Positions 9,635 to 26,974 of a DNA stretch of 64,000 nt are shown here, in pieces. Location of the stretch: positions 18,355 to 82,354 of the forward strand of contig CACWXL010000017.1 of the NCBI GenBank assembly GCA_902764825.1, read 5' to 3'. Positions within the stretch are counted from its first letter, which is position 1. Every line of letters starts with the position of its first letter. The position numbers were made by a program, and so were the translations under genes. The notes below the pieces were generated by a model. The model was not told the origin of the DNA. It saw only the letters and a list, made by a program, of their open reading frames with translations, and ran no database searches. Source of the DNA: Oscillospiraceae bacterium. GTDB lineage: Bacteria > Bacillota > Clostridia > Saccharofermentanales > Saccharofermentanaceae.

Positions 9635-10531
9635 ATGAAAAAATCATTGGCATCAATTCTTATAGTCTCCGTTATTTCTTTGTCGCTGACTTCATGCGAT
9701 GTCTTCGGCGGAACCGGAGGCGGCAAGAAGCCCACTGAGACAACTGAGACTTCGGAATCCGCGGAGATCTCATACAGTCTTCCTTACGGTAAGCCTTCAC
9801 ATGATCTGAACAGTGTCGATGTCAAAGAGACTTTTGAAGATCTTTATATCGATCCCATAGACAAACCGTGGGGAGCTTCACAGAATCTTAAAATGGTAAG
9901 CGGCGATGTCGATAATTACTTCGTATATTTTTCGCTGGACCGGAACGATAATCAGGTCAATGAGAACCTGAATTACATCTCGACGGTTACAAAGCCTTCC
10001 GTAAGGGCCTATGCTTCTGAAGATGAACCGGGCTACATTATCTACGAAGTGTCCTACGATCAGGTATTTCCGATCCACTCCAGAGAGCCTGCAGTCGTTA
10101 ATACTTCGTTTTTCTCATATCACAACGTCGGTTTCGTCGATTACTATACCGGCAGGAAATTCCCTGCGGTAAATCTGTCCACGCAGATAGACAGCTTCGG
10201 AGTAACGGGCAATGTGTTCTACAAGGGTGAGAAATATCATATGGGTTATTACGAATTCAGGACCCAGGAGGAGGTTTCCGGCAGCAGGGAGAATGCAGAC
10301 GGCGGTTATGTGTTCTTAAGGCAGGTGATAAAGCTCCACTCCACGTCTTATTTCATCGTGCCGGAATTCTACAGGGGAATCCTCATGTGCGTTTATATAG
10401 CAAATGATACTGACACTCCTCTTAGTGTGATAATGGATGACAACACTCCTTATTTCGTGCCTCCGACACCGTTTGGAGACGAAGAGAATCCGGATGATTA
10501 CGTATTCTTCGGAATAAGCGCTCCGCAGTAA
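9635..10531 (+). CDS. Putative lipoprotein, unknown function
   Basis: Signal peptide with lipobox LTSC and a Ser/Thr/Glu-rich linker. Confidence 0.7.
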   Translation: MKKSLASILIVSVISLSLTSCDVFGGTGGGKKPTETTETSESAEISYSLPYGKPSHDLNSVDVKETFEDLYIDPIDKPWGASQNLKMVSGDVDNYFVYFSLDRNDNQVNENLNYISTVTKPSVRAYASEDEPGYIIYEVSYDQVFPIHSREPAVVNTSFFSYHNVGFVDYYTGRKFPAVNLSTQIDSFGVTGNVFYKGEKYHMGYYEFRTQEEVSGSRENADGGYVFLRQVIKLHSTSYFIVPEFYRGILMCVYIANDTDTPLSVIMDDNTPYFVPPTPFGDEENPDDYVFFGISAPQ

Positions 10532-10535
10532 CTTT

Positions 10536-11786
10536 TTATACCCAGCTGAGGCGCCCTTCGAAGGCAACCTTTGGATCACCCGATCTTATCGTTCCAACCT
10601 CGCAGCAGTCATAGGTCTGATTAATGTGCTTCATAACAGAGGCCTTGTCTTTTTGCGAAGTCACGATCATGAATCCAACGCCGCAGTTAAAAGTCCTCAG
10701 CATCTCTTCATCGCTGATGCTGCCGTTGTCTCTTATAAACCTGAAGAGCTCCGGTATCCTGATCTTTGACAGATCGATCCTCGCACTCAGACCGTCAGGG
10801 ATTATACGGCAGAGATTTCCCTCTATACCGCCTCCGGTGATATGTGCCATTCCGTGTATGGAATTGCCGCCGAAAAGGTCTTTGACAGCCTTGTAGTAAG
10901 GCGTATGAGGCTTCATGATCTGCTCGATAAAAGTCATTCCGCCGACTATATCAGTCTTGATCTCCGGCTTTTTGTCCATGAGGAGCCTTACCAGCGAATA
11001 ACCGTTTGTATGAAGTCCGTTGGATGCGACAGCGAGTACCGCGTCGCCTTCTTTTATCGCAGAGCCGTCAATGATCTTCGATCTTTCGACTATGCCCGCA
11101 ATGCTTGATGAAAGGACATAGACTCCGTGGTCTACAACGAGAGGCTGGATAGAGGTCTCGCCGCCGACAAGAGAGCAGCAGTTGTCGCGGCATGCATCGG
11201 AGACGCCCTTGACCAGGGTCTTGATGGTGTCCTTCTCGGCATTTCCGCAGACGATGCAGTCCAGTACCGCCAGAGGCTTTGCGCCCATAACGATAATGTC
11301 ATTTACCAGGTGGTTTATCATGTCATGGCAGATGGATTCGGTATAGCCGTACTCCATGGCGAGCTTCTGCTTTGAGCCGGGTTCTTCAGTCTTTAAAACA
11401 AGGACCGGGTCTTTGATCTCAGGAAAATTGATGTCATACAGTGACGCGAAAGGCCCCAGACCGTTCAGTACACGGGGGTCTTTTGTCTCAAGGCTCTTCT
11501 CCATTTCCTTTTTGATCGAATCGGTATAGGCGATATCTATTCCGGCTTTGCTGTAGGAGAGTCCGCTTTCTTCCTTCTCGCTTCCTGCAAGGATCTCATC
11601 CACAGTCACTTCAAGTACAGATGCGAGCTCTTTAAGGATCTCGATGTTCGGAAATGTCACTCCGTTCTCCCACTTGGATATAGCCTGAAAGGAGACATTG
11701 AGTTTCTCTGAAAGTTGAGTCTGTGTAAGTCCCAGAGCCTTGCGCTTCTCTACGATAAAGCGCCCCATCTTCTTGCTGTCGATCAT
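10536..11786 (-). CDS. XRE-family HTH fused to a PurM (AIR synthetase)-like domain
   Basis: N-terminal ~68 aa is an XRE HTH (LTQTQLSEKLNVSFQAISKWENG); the rest has PurM motifs SYSKAGIDI, GGET, SNGLHTNGYS, HITGGG and TFNCGVG. Confidence 0.85.
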   Translation of the reverse strand: MIDSKKMGRFIVEKRKALGLTQTQLSEKLNVSFQAISKWENGVTFPNIEILKELASVLEVTVDEILAGSEKEESGLSYSKAGIDIAYTDSIKKEMEKSLETKDPRVLNGLGPFASLYDINFPEIKDPVLVLKTEEPGSKQKLAMEYGYTESICHDMINHLVNDIIVMGAKPLAVLDCIVCGNAEKDTIKTLVKGVSDACRDNCCSLVGGETSIQPLVVDHGVYVLSSSIAGIVERSKIIDGSAIKEGDAVLAVASNGLHTNGYSLVRLLMDKKPEIKTDIVGGMTFIEQIMKPHTPYYKAVKDLFGGNSIHGMAHITGGGIEGNLCRIIPDGLSARIDLSKIRIPELFRFIRDNGSISDEEMLRTFNCGVGFMIVTSQKDKASVMKHINQTYDCCEVGTIRSGDPKVAFEGRLSWV

Positions 11787-11888
11787 GCCGGACCTCCGTT
11801 TTTCTTTTATGTTATCCTCATAAACGAAGTGAAAACAATAACTGACAGATTGAGTTTATCACAGCGATTCAACTAATGGTTGAAATTT

Positions 11889-11913
11889 AAAAAGGTGCCT
11901 CGAAAGGCACCTT
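11889..11913 (-). terminator. Terminator after the SCIFF maturase
   Basis: AAGGTGCC-TCGAAA-GGCACCTT hairpin with an A-tract on the left (T-tract on minus). Confidence 0.65.
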
Positions 11914-11917
11914 GGTT

Positions 11918-13300
11918 TTATTTCTTTTCGCCGGGCTGCTCCAGGCCTGAAGTGAGGAGCTTGACCGCGATCGCGCATTCTATCCTCTTCCTGAAGATAT
12001 CGCATCCCATCTCGTAGATGCCGTTGATGTCGCCTGAAGCGTGATAGGAATTTGCCGCACAACCGCCGGAGCAGTAGAGCTTTGCCCAGCAGTCCTTGCA
12101 TTCGGGACGGCTGTAAGCGTTGCAGCATGCGAACCTGTCGCGAAGTTCCGTGTTCTGAACGCCGTCGTAGATATTACCCATCTTGTATGCGTCGTCGCCG
12201 ACGAACTGGTGGCAGGGATAGAGGTCGCCCCACGGTGTGACGGCGAGATACTCTGTGCCGGAGCCGCAGCCTGCGATCCTCTTATAGATGCAGGGACCGC
12301 ATGTGAGGTCGAGCATATAGTGGTAGAAGGTAAAAGGTCTGCCTTCCTTAAAGCGCCGGACCATAAGTCTTGCGAGCTCTTCGTACTGCTCGAAAACTAT
12401 GGGCAGGTCTTCTTTGGTTATCGCAGAAGGGCTGGAAGGCTCTGTAACTACAGGTTCCATTGAGAGTTCAGTAAATCCCAGATCCAGCATCTGCTTTATG
12501 TCATTTACAAAGTCTGTGTTGAAGTGCGTGAAGGTGCCGCGCATGTAATAACTGCGGTTGCCGCGCTTTGCTACGAACTTCTGGAAGTTCGGAACGATCT
12601 TATCGTATGAACCGTGGCCTGCGTAGTCGACTCTGAAGCGGTCATTGACTTCCTTGCGGCCGTCCAGAGAGAGAACGACGTTATGCATTTCGCGGTTGGC
12701 GAACTCAGTGACCTCATCATCTAAGAGCATGCCGTTCGTCGTAAGCGTGAAACGGATATTCTTGTTGTGGATCCTCTCCTGTTCGCGGCCGTAAGCTACA
12801 AGCTGCTTTACGACGTCCCAGTTCATGAGAGGTTCGCCGCCGAAGAAGTCGATATCAAGGTTCTTGTGGAATCCTGAATTCTCGATGAGGAAATCGATAG
12901 CTCTCTTGCCGACCTCATAGCTCATTATCGCGCGCTCGCCGTGGTACTTGCCCTGGCTTGCAAAGCAGTAGGAGCAGTTGAGGTTGCATGTGTGGGCAAC
13001 GTGCAGGCACAAAGCCTTGACCTTGAAATTCTTTTTTCTGAAATCCTTGGCCAGGTGCTCGTATTTATCGGGAGCATAGAGTTTTCCGGCTGTCTTAAGA
13101 TCGTCAATGTCGGCGATGCATTCCTCAGCATCTTCTTTTGAGATGCCGTGCTTTTCGACCGCTTTGGCGACAACTGCATCAGCAGGCTCGTTCTCATACC
13201 ATTGGATCATGTCATAGGCGACCTCGTCGACCATGTGAATGGACCCGGAATAGCAGTCGAGCACGATGTTAAGACCTTCGAATTGATAACAGTGGATCAT
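11918..13300 (-). CDS. scfB: Thioether cross-link-forming SCIFF (ranthipeptide) radical SAM/SPASM maturase
   Basis: CNLNCSYC radical SAM motif, FFGGEPL, SPASM cysteines (GCGSG, YPCHQF, CKDCWAKLYCSGGC); adjacent to the six-Cys peptide gene. Confidence 0.93.
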   Translation of the reverse strand: MIHCYQFEGLNIVLDCYSGSIHMVDEVAYDMIQWYENEPADAVVAKAVEKHGISKEDAEECIADIDDLKTAGKLYAPDKYEHLAKDFRKKNFKVKALCLHVAHTCNLNCSYCFASQGKYHGERAIMSYEVGKRAIDFLIENSGFHKNLDIDFFGGEPLMNWDVVKQLVAYGREQERIHNKNIRFTLTTNGMLLDDEVTEFANREMHNVVLSLDGRKEVNDRFRVDYAGHGSYDKIVPNFQKFVAKRGNRSYYMRGTFTHFNTDFVNDIKQMLDLGFTELSMEPVVTEPSSPSAITKEDLPIVFEQYEELARLMVRRFKEGRPFTFYHYMLDLTCGPCIYKRIAGCGSGTEYLAVTPWGDLYPCHQFVGDDAYKMGNIYDGVQNTELRDRFACCNAYSRPECKDCWAKLYCSGGCAANSYHASGDINGIYEMGCDIFRKRIECAIAVKLLTSGLEQPGEKK

Positions 13301-13372: not shown

Positions 13373-13519
13373 TTACTTGTTGAGCTGCTCGCAAGGCTGG
13401 TTAGCAACACCGCAGGATGTCTTGCATGCAGACTGGCAAGATGTCTGGCACTCGCCGCATCCGCCTTCCTTAGCTGACTTCTCGAGATCTCTTGTCTCTA
13501 CTGTAACGATTCTTGTCAT
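13373..13519 (-). CDS. scfA: Six-cysteine ranthipeptide precursor (SCIFF), 48 aa
   Basis: MTRIVTVETRDLEKSAKEGGCGECQTSCQSACKTSCGVANQPCEQLNK matches the SCIFF pattern; GAGGGAG RBS precedes ATG at 13519. Confidence 0.95.
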   Translation of the reverse strand: MTRIVTVETRDLEKSAKEGGCGECQTSCQSACKTSCGVANQPCEQLNK

Positions 13520-13550: not shown

Positions 13551-13579
13551 ATTATACTTTGATGACCTTTAACAGTCAA
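13551..13579 (-). promoter_or_regulatory. Sigma-A promoter of scfA
   Basis: TTGACT-17 bp-TATAAT on the minus strand; the -35 overlaps the decarboxylase stop codon. Confidence 0.75.
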
Positions 13580-14961
13580 GGCAAAACGGGTATCAGTCCG
13601 TTGTAACTGCGCCCGCCGCCCATATGTAGCTTGATATCGCCCCTGGAAAGGATCCTGACGGTATCTTCCGTAATTATCTCTCCGGGCATCAGGAGCGGTA
13701 TTCCGGGCGGGAAGCCGTAGATGAATTCACCGGAAGGCTTGCCGATGCTGAATTCAGGCTCGAGTTCTATGGAGCGGAGCCTTAACTGTGCCGCTTCCCT
13801 GAGCGTCATTGCAAATCTGGGGTAGGGTCTGGAGATAAACTTGGATTCGGTGTAAGGACTGTCCACTGCGTCATCTACTGCCTTGACCGCATCGCAGAAT
13901 CTCTTCAGGGTACTGACCGTGTCGCCGATGCCTGTCATTGCTATCAGATGGGAAGGGAAGCTTGCTTCGCATTCGATGTTGAATGTTCCTCTGAGCTGAT
14001 CGAAAAGGAAATCCCCGTAGCCCATTATTACGAACTTTGATCTCTCCCTGACGGGCGCTTCCCAGAGCCTGAAGTTGCGAAGCCCTCTTAAGTTTTCCTC
14101 GGCGTATGTTATTGCGTCTTCCCAGGGCTTTAAGAGCGAGGGGCCTTTGGCATAAAGGCTCGAAAGGCATTTGGATACGCCGCCCAATAATATGTACGAG
14201 GGCGAGGAAGTCTCAAATATATCAAGACCTCTTCTTATAAGGGATTCTTCTATGGGACAACCTTCGTTAAGGAGCATTACTGCTGTCTGCGTAGGGGAAG
14301 ACAGTGTCTTATGAAGGCTCTTTATTACGATATCGCCCTTTGAATCAGGGCCGAAGAAATTATCATCCAGTCCGAGATGAGCGCCGTGCGCGCTGTCGGT
14401 GATGAGGAGGGCATCGTATTTCCTGGTTATACGGAAGATCTCGTCCATGTCTGACAGCACGCCTTCATAAGTAGGAGACGTTACGACGACGATCTTAAGG
14501 GACGGGTCTCTGGCAAGGTATCTTTCGATATCAGAAGGGGATACGTGTCCTGCGAAAGGAAGTCCTATGTCGAACGCGGGCATCAGAGGGACTATGGAAC
14601 TGCCGGTAAGTTCTATGGCATTCCAGACTGACAGATGACAGTTCATTGCAGCAAGGATCTTCGAATTCGGGTAGAGGTTACAAGCGCTCCAGATGGCGGC
14701 AAGGATAAGCGCGGAAGAACCGTTTACGGAAATAAACGCTTTTTTCGCTTTCCAGACCGAAGCTGCACAGTCTTCCATATCCTTAAGGATGCCGGTAGGG
14801 GAATGGAGGTTATCGAATCCGCCGATCTCGGTGATATCACGCATGAATGCCTGTGACACGAAGTCCGGGTTGCGCTTGCCGCCCGGCATATGCATCGGCA
14901 GAGGATCGGTTCCCAGATAGAGCTTCAATGCTGCTCCGAGCCTGTCGTTGTCGTATTTCAT
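13576..14961 (-). CDS. Orn/Lys/Arg decarboxylase family PLP enzyme
   Basis: HMPGGKR, DITEIGGFDNLH, SPTYEG, DSAHGAH, SLHKTL (PLP lysine) and YGFPPGIP motifs. Confidence 0.85.
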   Translation of the reverse strand: MKYDNDRLGAALKLYLGTDPLPMHMPGGKRNPDFVSQAFMRDITEIGGFDNLHSPTGILKDMEDCAASVWKAKKAFISVNGSSALILAAIWSACNLYPNSKILAAMNCHLSVWNAIELTGSSIVPLMPAFDIGLPFAGHVSPSDIERYLARDPSLKIVVVTSPTYEGVLSDMDEIFRITRKYDALLITDSAHGAHLGLDDNFFGPDSKGDIVIKSLHKTLSSPTQTAVMLLNEGCPIEESLIRRGLDIFETSSPSYILLGGVSKCLSSLYAKGPSLLKPWEDAITYAEENLRGLRNFRLWEAPVRERSKFVIMGYGDFLFDQLRGTFNIECEASFPSHLIAMTGIGDTVSTLKRFCDAVKAVDDAVDSPYTESKFISRPYPRFAMTLREAAQLRLRSIELEPEFSIGKPSGEFIYGFPPGIPLLMPGEIITEDTVRILSRGDIKLHMGGGRSYNGLIPVLP

Positions 14962-15013
14962 GGCGAGCAACCTCCTTTAATGTAACTTATCACAAAAAAC
15001 TGATATTAAGAAG

Positions 15014-15075: not shown

Positions 15076-15441
15076 ATGAAAGAGAATTCGATCGGTGACA
15101 GCGAGTATAAGCTAATGGAATTGATATGGGAATACGCTCCGGTAGCTTCCGGCGAGTTGTCCACCATGTGTGAGATGATCCACGGCTGGAAGAAGACCAC
15201 GGTCTATACAATGCTCAAAAGACTTCAGGACAAGGGATTCATACAGAGCGAGAAATCCACTATCACGTATCTGGTAGACCGTGACGAGCTTCAGAGACAG
15301 CAGAGCGAGGAACTCGTCGAGAAGAACTTCAAGGGATCCCTGCCGATGTTCGTCAACGCTTTCTTAGGCGGCGGTAAGAAGATGAGCAAGGAAGACGCCC
15401 AGAGTCTTATCGACATGATAGAACAGCACACGGAAGAATAA
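15076..15441 (+). CDS. BlaI/MecI/CopY family transcriptional repressor
   Basis: 121 aa; SEYKLMELIWE, WKKTTVYTMLKRLQDKGFI winged helix, FKGSLPMFVNAFL C-terminal motif. Confidence 0.92.
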   Translation: MKENSIGDSEYKLMELIWEYAPVASGELSTMCEMIHGWKKTTVYTMLKRLQDKGFIQSEKSTITYLVDRDELQRQQSEELVEKNFKGSLPMFVNAFLGGGKKMSKEDAQSLIDMIEQHTEE

Positions 15442-15466: not shown

Positions 15467-17986
15467 ATGAGTTTTATATTTTCCAAGGTGCTTGAGATGA
15501 GTTTGTACGGCAGTATTGCCATACTTGTCGTGTTGCTGTTCAGGCTAATTTTCCAAAAATGCCCCAAGAAAGTCATGATCCTTTTCTGGATCATTGTGGC
15601 ATTAAGGCTAGTGCTGCCTTTTAACTTCAATTCACCTACGAGCATTCTTAACTTCGGAAAGTTCGTTCAGCCGAAGACTGTGTCGGCAGAGCCCACAGTC
15701 TACGATCCCGAGACGAGATTAAGGGAGATCGCCGTAGTCGATAATACGCCTGTTGCTATAGAGCAGAATGATCCTGATGCTGCCGTAACCGGTAACAGCA
15801 ATGAGGCTCCGGATACCGCACCTGTGGTTACTGAACAGGCTCCCAAGGTAACGTTTAAGACGGTTCTGCCCTTTATCTGGCTTGGCGTAACGGCCGCCAT
15901 GCTGATCTTTTCAGCAATAAGATATGCGATCTTCTACTCAAGGGCCAGATGGAGTTCCCGTTCTTTCGACGGAAGATATTACATGGCAAATGACATCGAT
16001 TCACCGTTCGTTGTAGGCATCATCAAGCCTAAGATCTTTTTCCCGATCAACATGGATGACGATGAGCGCGAATATGTGCTCAATCACGAATGGACCCACA
16101 TAAAGAACAAGGACGGGCTTACCAAGCTTTTAAGCTACATCGTTCTCAGCATACACTGGTTTAATCCGCTTGTATGGCTTGCTTTCTTCATGCTCTGCGC
16201 AGATATCGAAATGCGTGTCGACGAGGAGACAACGAGCAATTTCAACCTCTCCATGGTAAAGGAATACTGCAAGTCGCTTGTAAGGCATGCGGCAGATGAC
16301 AATAAGGGCGCGTTTATGCAGAGCACTGCTTTCAGCGGCCTTTCTTTCGGAGGCATGGAGACCAAGATGAGGATCAAGAATCTTCTGTCACATAAGATCA
16401 CATCCAGAGAGATCCAGATCGCTTCCATTTGCGTTACCCTGGCCTTCTCGCTCCTGGTATCCGCATCTTCGATCGACCATCAGCCCTGGGTAAGGGAAAA
16501 GCCTTCTGAGCCAGAAGAGAGTGCTGTGGTTACAACATCTGATACTTTGGAATCTACGCCTTCTGAGACAACTGCTGAGACGACAAAGACCAGACGCTGG
16601 GATGCTGCATTTATTGATCCTTATATTGAACTCATCAGGAAGACCGGATATGACTATCAGGGCAATAAGCTTTATTACAAATATGCTTTCATCTACATCG
16701 ATGATGACCTGATCCCTGAGCTTGTTATGGAAAGACCGACAGAGGGTGCGAACGATCTGGTAAGTCTTTACACTTTCAGAAACGGTAAGGTTCTGCCTGT
16801 CTTTGAGGACGGCGTTTATATGGATTCGAGCGAGTCTTATCACTACGTTCCTTTTGAAGACTTTATTATTCATCATGTTGTATTGACCCAGGGTGAGCTC
16901 GCTGAAGCCAAGCTCTATTCCATGAATGATCTTATGACAGGTGCAAAGCCTAAAGCAGACGGCTATTTTGAGGGAACTTCGTTTTCAATAGACGGCAAGA
17001 GTGTCACGCAGGATGAATATAAAGAGTTTTTCAGAAGCCGCGAAGCCGAAGTGATAACCGGCAAAGTCGGTCCTGATAAGGCTATTGAGATCCTGAATGG
17101 CCAGAAGACTTCCGGCGGAACCAAGATCCCTTCTGACATTTCGGATGACCCGGCTGTTTCCGAGACAACAGAGACGACGGAAGAGACAACGGCTGCTACT
17201 GCTTCTGAGACCACAACACCTGTTGAGACAACGGTACCTGCAGAGGATAAGCTGCTTTCGATAAGCAAGATAAAGGATTTTACGGTCATTCCGTTTGTGA
17301 ACGAGAGCAACAATTCCACTTTTACTGTCTCAGGAGAATTTGGAAGTATCGTTTGCAGGATCCTCCCGGAGAAAGTGGTGCGCTTCACTATTAAGGACAA
17401 GTCATTTGAATATGCAATTCCTTCAACGAGCACCGGAGGAATCTACCTGCTGAAAGATTACGGAAAGGCGAACATCTTTATTCAGTTCTACGTTGAAGGC
17501 GGAAACCAGATCTGTGCATACAATGTCTTTGATAACGGTGTTTTCTTCAAAGGAGCGGTTAATAACGCCACATTCGAAAGAGCAGTCGATAATCCCAGAA
17601 CATTCTGGATCATTGAAAACTATGGGGAAAATGCGGTCGTTGATGTGAGGAGAAATTACTCGATGTCCAAAACAACAGGAATGCCGGCACCTGATACCTA
17701 CCTGATGTATACATGCTTCAACGTGAAGATGCCTTTAAAGAGCAAGGTTGATCTGTGCGGCTATCTGATGATAAACGGCACCATCTATAAACACAATTTA
17801 ATCTATATATATGTAGGTGAGAAAGTAACTCCGGTAAAAACAGATGAAAAAGACGTTATCATAATTCAAAAAGAAGACGGCACAGTGCTCCAGGTAAACT
17901 TCAAAGACCAGAAAGACAGATTCTACGACAGTAATAACTACCGCTGGGTCTACAATGCCATAGTGGACTGGTTCGAACCTGCATAA
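15467..17986 (+). CDS. M56 family (BlaR1/MecR1-type) membrane metalloprotease sensor with a large non-PBP extracellular region
   Basis: SPFVVGIIKPKI, HEWTH zinc motif, IHWFNPLVW, IEMRVDE; followed by a TM helix and two ectodomains separated by Thr/Glu-rich linkers. Confidence 0.9.
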   Translation: MSFIFSKVLEMSLYGSIAILVVLLFRLIFQKCPKKVMILFWIIVALRLVLPFNFNSPTSILNFGKFVQPKTVSAEPTVYDPETRLREIAVVDNTPVAIEQNDPDAAVTGNSNEAPDTAPVVTEQAPKVTFKTVLPFIWLGVTAAMLIFSAIRYAIFYSRARWSSRSFDGRYYMANDIDSPFVVGIIKPKIFFPINMDDDEREYVLNHEWTHIKNKDGLTKLLSYIVLSIHWFNPLVWLAFFMLCADIEMRVDEETTSNFNLSMVKEYCKSLVRHAADDNKGAFMQSTAFSGLSFGGMETKMRIKNLLSHKITSREIQIASICVTLAFSLLVSASSIDHQPWVREKPSEPEESAVVTTSDTLESTPSETTAETTKTRRWDAAFIDPYIELIRKTGYDYQGNKLYYKYAFIYIDDDLIPELVMERPTEGANDLVSLYTFRNGKVLPVFEDGVYMDSSESYHYVPFEDFIIHHVVLTQGELAEAKLYSMNDLMTGAKPKADGYFEGTSFSIDGKSVTQDEYKEFFRSREAEVITGKVGPDKAIEILNGQKTSGGTKIPSDISDDPAVSETTETTEETTAATASETTTPVETTVPAEDKLLSISKIKDFTVIPFVNESNNSTFTVSGEFGSIVCRILPEKVVRFTIKDKSFEYAIPSTSTGGIYLLKDYGKANIFIQFYVEGGNQICAYNVFDNGVFFKGAVNNATFERAVDNPRTFWIIENYGENAVVDVRRNYSMSKTTGMPAPDTYLMYTCFNVKMPLKSKVDLCGYLMINGTIYKHNLIYIYVGEKVTPVKTDEKDVIIIQKEDGTVLQVNFKDQKDRFYDSNNYRWVYNAIVDWFEPA

Positions 17987-26934: not shown

Positions 26935-26974
26935 TTTCTGCACAAGCGAACGGAGTTCGCGCGAAAGCCTTAAG
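26935..26974 (-). repeat. Dispersed 40-bp structured repeat, copy 2
   Basis: 37/40 match to 9433-9472; enclosed by the GCCTGCTT/AAGCAGGC inverted repeat. Confidence 0.8.

Follow-up and report, generated by a model that had tools for sequence, protein, structure and literature searches.

A helix-turn-helix–PurM fusion on a 1.36-kb cassette of Clostridia as a candidate autoregulated AIR synthetase

The window analysed here is a stretch of 64,000 nucleotides (nt) from an Oscillospiraceae bacterium of the family Saccharofermentanaceae (assembly GCA_902764825.1, contig CACWXL010000017.1, positions 18,355 to 82,354 of the forward strand). On its reverse strand, at 10536-11786, it carries a gene whose product of 416 amino acids (aa; 416 codons plus stop), here called HTH-PurM, joins an XRE-type helix-turn-helix (HTH) domain to a complete PurM, the aminoimidazole ribonucleotide (AIR) synthetase fold. 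On balance, we take HTH-PurM to be an autoregulated, bifunctional AIR synthetase and regulator encoded on a portable cassette, a reading that we hold with moderate confidence. A literature search found no paper on such a fusion, and NCBI names close homologues phosphoribosylformylglycinamidine cyclo-ligase.

The XRE/Cro-CI type HTH domain spans residues 4-67 (11586-11777) and matches Pfam HTH_3 (PF01381) at residues 13-65 with an E-value of 2.9e-16, as well as the 434 and P22 repressors. A short acidic linker (residues 68-73; 11568-11585) connects it to the PurM fold, which takes up the C-terminal 343 residues (74-416; 10539-11567) and is matched by AIRS at 130-233 and AIRS_C at 245-403. On the NCBIfam purM model TIGR00878, for which the cut-off is 236.35, HTH-PurM reaches 274.8 bits and covers model positions 2-330 of 332, and PDB PurM chains match it with E-values of about 1e-64. 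An AlphaFold2 model, computed from a 44-sequence alignment, has a mean predicted local distance difference test score (pLDDT) of 91.8 and places the five HTH helices at residues 4-17, 22-29, 33-40, 48-57 and 62-67; its least confident stretch is residues 71-80, where the linker lies (mean pLDDT 66). Compared by Foldseek with E. coli PurM (1CLI), the model gives a target-normalised TM score of 0.93 and a root-mean-square deviation of 2.0. In the loop known as G2, the protein reads KTEEPGSK (residues 132-139; 11370-11393) where canonical PurM has GTDGVGTK, and further motifs are DMINHLVND, GGETSI, SNGLHTNG, HITGGG and FNCG. The fusion of an XRE domain to a full PurM, with the KTEEPGSK, DMINHLVND and GGETSI variants, had been pointed out in a preliminary description of this DNA, with which the open reading frame (ORF) call, Pfam and TIGR00878 agree. 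The gene is monocistronic, because the terminator of scfB lies upstream of it and a convergent 298-aa ORF, which ends 4 nt past the HTH-PurM stop codon, lies downstream.

The homologue search covered 1.84 billion cluster representatives and returned other full-length fusions, 30-65% identical to HTH-PurM, together with unfused proteins of about 350 aa that carry the same EEPGSK variant and are 49-52% identical to it. A genome scan, with one genome per species, gave 80 loci: 23 unfused EEPGSK, 45 of the HTH clade and 12 canonical controls. Full-length fusions account for 39 of the 45 HTH-clade loci, and their hosts are Lachnospiraceae, Oscillospiraceae and other Clostridia, while the unfused EEPGSK proteins (loci L021-L039, L044, L054, L059, L063, L073, L078-L080, L083 and L087) are found in Peribacteria, Latescibacterota, Phycisphaerae, Gemmatimonadota, Paenibacillus, Spirochaetales and some Bacillota. 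A maximum-likelihood tree of 118 PurM domains unites the EEPGSK proteins in one clade, with a Shimodaira-Hasegawa-like approximate likelihood ratio (SH-aLRT) support of 100 and a stem of 0.83; every HTH-bearing protein falls in a single clade nested within it (SH-aLRT 99), where the intact fusions are short-branched. TEEPGSK and GGETS-x-QP are invariant across the EEPGSK subfamily, in fused and unfused proteins alike. The phylogeny and conservation check that the preliminary description had proposed thus comes out as one clade of fusions with an invariant motif, and the unfused EEPGSK PurM is, as judged from these comparisons, a distinct class, first defined here.

To compare the active sites we used the 64 positions with an invariance of 90% or more in canonical PurM. 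Wherever the unfused EEPGSK proteins preserve such a position, the fused proteins do so too; the positions concerned include K139, D155, N162/D163, G168-A169-P171, GGE at 208-210, D248, S255, G257, H259, N261, H315, TGGG at 317-320, N324, R327 and N367. The sole fusion-specific change is E213 to I, at a position where unfused EEPGSK proteins have E or V, the V being carried by the Latescibacterota proteins. All catalytic positions are 96-100% conserved in the fused proteins: D163, G168, A169 and P171 of the Dx4GAxP motif (here D163-IIVM-GA-K-P171) reach 100% in the fused clade, and H259, N261 and H315 occur without exception (100%) in the 46 motif-intact fusions. By aligned ranges, N261 and H315 correspond to N186 and H239 of Pyrococcus abyssi PurM, whose mutants are known from the titles of recent structure entries. 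In the literature, Dx4GAxP is described as a Mg/ATP motif, two conserved histidines (human H620 and H680) are candidate catalytic residues, and G1 (GGLGGFGA) and G2 (GVGTK) are the proposed loops for ATP and for phosphoribosylformylglycinamidine (FGAM), respectively (PMC2978367). Both canonical loops are absent from HTH-PurM, which has NGLGPFAS at G1 and EPGSK at G2.

The preliminary description had raised the possibility of a repurposed enzyme domain. The idea that the motif changes mark a repurposed or inactive site is not supported, as TEEPGSK and GGETS-x-QP are invariant throughout the subfamily, including genomes where the EEPGSK protein is the sole PurM, and N261, H315 and Dx4GAxP are kept; moreover, the variant occurs in the unfused EEPGSK proteins, and its being common in ordinary PurM enzymes was what that description had itself set down as speaking against its proposal. 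Four genomes were checked, namely two complete chromosomes of Latescibacterota (6.6 and 6.0 Mb) and two genomes of Peribacteria. Each has a single PurM-family match that clears the cut-off, the EEPGSK protein, with the next matches at 20-30 bits, and each also carries purD over the cut-off and a full-length purC-like match. The Latescibacterota protein obtains 278.8 bits on the purM model, about equal to the fusion. Because the unfused EEPGSK protein is the only PurM in genomes bearing purD and a purC-like gene, the EEPGSK-type fold is, on comparative grounds, most likely still an AIR synthetase, and a loss of this function as a result of the motif changes seems unlikely. Likewise, since the variant is invariant in sole-PurM proteins, the canonical form of G1 and G2 does not appear to be required for the function of the family. 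In Paenibacillus, the unfused EEPGSK PurM is a second copy located away from pur genes.

Computed against the orthologue of the close relative G348, the ratio of nonsynonymous to synonymous substitution rates (dN/dS) amounts to 0.010 in the HTH, 0.046 in the linker plus N-terminal helix and 0.060 in the PurM body; in more distant pairs, synonymous sites have reached saturation, while dN is 0.09-0.34. Both the HTH and the PurM domain are under strong purifying selection.

In the fused family, the most conserved block of all is the recognition-helix region, NVSFQAISKW, and the gene is preceded by a matching kind of site. An operator-like dyad, TTCAACC-ATT-AGTTGAA, lies at 11868-11884 (a symmetric element to which no strand is assigned), about 97 nt upstream of the ATG, and the six copies of the genus, which stand in differing contexts, have TTCAACC-N3-GGTTGAA in common at a similar place, some 100 nt ahead of the ATG. 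Across orthologues, TCAAC-N5-GTTGA with at most one mismatch is found in 33 of 45 upstream regions, compared with 1.5% of 8,800 windows taken from these loci as controls, and its distance to the start is fixed across the 33 loci despite unrelated flanks. When 28 upstream regions are aligned, several more boxes prove almost invariant, namely AAAnTC, GGTTATTG, TATnAT placed 18 nt after TTG, and AAAAACGGAGGT. On the reverse strand of the window these correspond to an AAACTC box between the dyad and GGTTATTG (11852-11857), a half-site-like (G)GTTATTG whose TTG is the likely -35 element (11836-11844), and a -10-like hexamer, TAACAT, 18 nt after the TTG (11809-11814; TATnAT in most orthologues); the ribosome-binding site GGAGGT is at 11793-11798. 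From this conservation we infer that TTG...TATnAT is the promoter, in which case the dyad would be centred at about -74 and GGTTATTG would overlap the -35. GGTTAT resembles the half-site GGTTGA and is about three helical turns from the dyad, which suggests cooperative binding of two dimers at the dyad and GGTTAT. A regulatory role of the HTH, as put forward in the preliminary description, is supported by the conserved dyad that travels with the gene; the stretch singled out there for binding assays, 11787-11880, ends inside the dyad.

A symmetrised position weight matrix was run over the 3.0-Mb genome that holds the window. The gene's own site scores 25.4 bits, followed by hits of 19.4 and 17.4 bits, and none of the 12 hits above 12 bits is at the pur loci found in this genome. 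The second-best dyad (C3:219857-219877; locus L104:2858-2878) precedes, by about 105 nt, an unrelated XRE HTH gene of 209 aa, whose HTH is 42% identical; genes for a YhfC protease and a FecR-domain protein follow, and a partial second dyad copy is nearby. A riboswitch or leader RNA was considered and rejected, since RNAalifold predicted 0 pairs on the 28 orthologous leaders and there was no significant Rfam match, the single match on the upstream region being at chance level and inside coding sequence.

The gene and about 112 nt upstream of it form a 1.36-kb cassette (10536-11898, reverse strand) that is present or absent as a unit. The fusion occurs in 9 of the 31 genomes of the window's genus. 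In the close relative G348 it is at the same site, with 92% nucleotide identity, while G008 and G005 lack the segment corresponding to about 10536-11898, and its flanking genes lie next to each other there, 3 bp and 107 bp apart, respectively; the same unit is found on other contigs, in unrelated contexts, in G009, G352, G022, G351, G020, G004 and G021. No further fused copy turned up among 300 genomes sampled evenly from the class. In phage and plasmid records, none of the matches listed was fused, and those to the enzyme part were canonical purM at 34-38% identity. No target-site duplications or repeats were seen by eye at the cassette ends. Outside the genus, a housekeeping PurM, either canonical with 430-460 bits or of Bacteroidetes type, accompanies the fusion in nine of the ten fusion-bearing genomes checked, the tenth, in which none was found, being a 1.6-Mb assembly; five congeners with the fusion likewise hold a Bacteroidetes-type PurM. 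These counts bear out the earlier proposal that the fusion is a paralogue, and by its distribution it is an accessory, mobile and nearly always second purM, patchy among rumen and gut Clostridia. The preliminary description had also stated that there are no pur genes nearby, which is true of the window; elsewhere, however, such genes directly follow three orthologues, with purN 19 nt after the fused gene in L058 and purC within 27-65 nt in L082 and L085.

The genome under study carries a purE-purF-purN-purH cluster (contig C1:273014-277655), with no purM between purF and purN, and a second purF, purC, purD and a large purL elsewhere; purF, purD, purN, purL, purE, purC and purH are all open. 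The purH here is a 400-aa form with only the aminoimidazole carboxamide ribonucleotide formyltransferase (AICARFT) part. The preliminary description had called for a check for a separate canonical purM. Another PurM homologue does exist, the only one (C1:96491-97519; locus L002:1171-2199), but it is of the Bacteroidetes type (PDB 3MDO/3KIZ, E 1e-109), and relative to congeners a clean internal deletion of 95 nt, with AGG microhomology, has put it out of frame and taken away the FNCGHR strand; its true C-terminus can be read in the +1 frame. This housekeeping gene is intact in the closest relative, G348, and in other congeners; because the G348 copy is intact, the lesion would be either recent or an assembly error. 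If it is true, this genome, which is 99.9% complete, would have no intact PurM besides HTH-PurM.

Inside the fused clade of the 118-domain tree there is a long-branched clade (support 98) that has lost the catalytic motifs. It is represented by 10 cluster representatives (P0128, P0131, P0132, P0147, P0152, P0157, P0164, P0172, P0223 and P0251) and by eight gut-metagenome loci (L109-L116), which were obtained with an alignment query, a metagenome scan with P0152 alone having given none. These motif-dead proteins lack GGET, H259/N261 and HITGGG, score 132 bits on the purM model, below its cut-off, and retain the HTH signature [HNK][VI]SxQA[VI]S[KR]W. The dyad and GGTTATTG are found upstream of their genes, perfect in L111-L114 and with one mismatch in L115 and L116, and in L109-L113 two ATP-binding cassette (ABC) half-transporter genes of exporter type come directly after the motif-dead gene, with stop/start overlap in L111-L113. 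Because this branch keeps both HTH and dyad, the HTH/dyad module would persist as a regulator after catalysis is lost, and the branch shows the module apparently working as a controller of a transcription unit. In contrast, the window's branch keeps its catalysis-related residues under tight constraint.

Taking these observations together, we hypothesize that the C-terminal 343 residues of HTH-PurM would act as a working AIR synthetase, converting FGAM and ATP to AIR, and that the PurM homodimer would present the N-terminal XRE HTH twice. The two HTHs would then bind the dyad TTCAACC-N3-GGTTGAA, some 100 nt ahead of the start codon of their own gene, and the weaker proximal site (GGTTATTG) overlapping the -35 would probably be bound too; in this way the protein would set its own expression, up or down, as well as the expression of any purN or purC located downstream. 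As the G1 loop and the N-terminal helix directly follow the linker, ligand-induced ordering there could reach the HTHs, and FGAM, ATP or AIR may thereby affect DNA binding. A more far-reaching version, in which HTH-PurM is a catalysis-coupled switch, with FGAM/ATP binding or turnover altering the HTH geometry and tuning transcription, and in which the family is a three-stage series, we put forward only tentatively.

Several observations weigh against the autoregulated enzyme. The inferred promoter does not pass a generic sigma-70 scan; a dyad centre at about -74 would be less expected of a simple repressor than of an activator or a repressor that binds cooperatively; 12 of the 45 loci have no good dyad within 160 nt; and linkage to pur genes is seen in only 3 of the 45. 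The G1 and G2 loops differ from those of all characterised PurMs (loop roles: PMC2978367), and the catalytic residues could be kept merely for ligand binding. The broken housekeeping purM is a single case and possibly an assembly error. The gain from a second, self-regulated PurM beside a housekeeping copy might be overflow capacity, AIR supply while the housekeeping operon is repressed or a backup for a lost gene (possibly the case here).

Part of this would be explained if HTH-PurM were solely a one-component transcription factor, its PurM fold serving as a sensor of FGAM, ATP or AIR and as a dimerisation module, with targets at weaker sites elsewhere. The conserved HTH and dyad agree with this, as do the near-constant status of the gene as a second purM and the derived branch, which is clearly a pseudoenzyme regulator of ABC exporters; Bacillus subtilis PurR also provides a precedent for an enzyme-like purine sensor. 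We nevertheless find the proposal rather doubtful, considering that the fusions keep their catalytic positions at 96-100% and have short branches, unlike the branch without catalytic motifs, that dN/dS is 0.06 in the PurM part, that some orthologues are in an operon with purN or purC, and that the only other purM of this genome is broken. Furthermore, no genomic site is as strong as the gene's own promoter, so that such a factor would regulate only itself; a regulator with only its own strong site needs another selectable function, and the intact enzyme would supply one.

An autoregulated enzyme could, alternatively, act on a substrate other than FGAM, carrying out the ATP-dependent cyclisation or phosphorylation of another amidine or amide. 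Both G1 and the G2 loop, the proposed lining of the FGAM site (PMC2978367), are altered, and the unfused Paenibacillus members are extra copies away from pur genes, but we regard this as unlikely given that the Latescibacterota and Peribacteria genomes checked, all with purD and a purC-like gene, yielded no PurM homologue other than an EEPGSK protein, that the score exceeds the purM equivalog cut-off and that some orthologues adjoin purN or purC. Least credible of all is an ordinary PurM with a functionless HTH appendage: although the NCBI name and the passing of the purM model would suit it, the HTH is the most constrained part of the protein (dN/dS 0.010), it is kept throughout the clade, pseudoenzymes included, and a matching dyad travels with the gene.

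By its profile match, fold and catalytic residues, HTH-PurM belongs to the PurM family, and it departs from the canonical G1 and G2 loops together with its whole subfamily. Known PurMs (TIGR00878; E. coli 1CLI, Bacillus anthracis 2BTU, the P. abyssi 9K00 series) have the same two-domain fold at 33-38% identity and share Dx4GAxP, GGET, SNG-H-x-NG, HITGGG and FNCG with it, whereas HTH-PurM adds the N-terminal XRE HTH, has NGLGPFAS for GGLGGFGA, EEPGSK for DGVGTK and GGETSI for GGETAE, and is encoded away from the pur operon by a mobile, accessory gene copy. The unfused EEPGSK PurMs are 49-56% identical to HTH-PurM, carry the same variant motifs, do not have the HTH, and have E or V where the fusions have I213. 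The motif-dead HTH-PurM-like proteins (P0152, P0131, L109-L116) share the fusion, the HTH signature and the promoter layout with dyad and GGTTATTG, and differ by the loss of GGET, H259/N261 and HITGGG. BirA (biotin ligase and repressor), NadR and PutA are metabolic enzymes with a DNA-binding domain that controls genes of their own pathway; they are alike in concept and have no sequence relationship to HTH-PurM, the HTH class and enzyme fold being different, and the regulon of HTH-PurM is apparently limited to its cassette. In B. subtilis PurR, a winged HTH is joined to a phosphoribosyltransferase-like sensor that is catalytically inactive and senses phosphoribosyl pyrophosphate; it is likewise an enzyme fold with a DNA-binding domain, but the fold differs, and in HTH-PurM the catalytic residues are intact.

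In the window, the neighbours of HTH-PurM are scfB, for the maturase of a SCIFF (six cysteines in forty-five residues) peptide, the gene of the ScfA peptide, a pyridoxal phosphate (PLP)-dependent decarboxylase gene, the 298-aa ORF and two ABC half-transporter genes. The SCIFF ranthipeptide system comprises ScfB (11918-13300, reverse strand; TIGR03974, 739 bits) and the six-Cys precursor ScfA (about 13373-13510, reverse strand; TIGR03973, 81 bits), preceded on the same strand by the decarboxylase gene, of the Orn/Lys/Arg-decarboxylase family (13576-14970). A functional link between the fusion and SCIFF was rejected, as the intrinsic terminator of scfB (11892-11913, reverse strand), which marks the upstream boundary of the cassette, stands between them, and congeners have scfB without the cassette or the cassette elsewhere. 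A link to the adjacent ABC pair was rejected as well, the pair being syntenic in congeners that do not have the cassette and having no dyad upstream. The 298-aa ORF (9635-10531, forward strand) has no Pfam or NCBIfam match and is conserved and syntenic in congeners. Further on, a BlaI/CopY-like repressor gene (15076-15441, forward strand) is followed by that of an 839-aa BlaR1-type M56 peptidase sensor (15467-17986, forward strand). The intergenic segment 9427-9480, after the ABC gene, belongs to a dispersed repeat of 40-55 nt with 85-100% identity among copies and no significant Rfam match; other copies are in the window at about 26935-26974, on contig C27 and in many congeners.

The plain-PurM annotation in public records conceals both the regulatory domain and the dead-enzyme relatives. 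If our reading of HTH-PurM is true, it would be the first known case of an enzyme of the purine pathway with a DNA-binding domain of its own, and the 1.36-kb cassette would be a compact and portable metabolic module that regulates itself. The canonical G1 and G2 loops would not be obligatory, and a second sequence class of AIR synthetase would serve whole phyla. The family would then form a series leading from free EEPGSK PurM, through a fused enzyme and regulator on a mobile cassette, to pseudoenzyme regulators of ABC exporters, all with one operator, and the origin of ligand-sensing transcription factors from enzymes would become directly testable.

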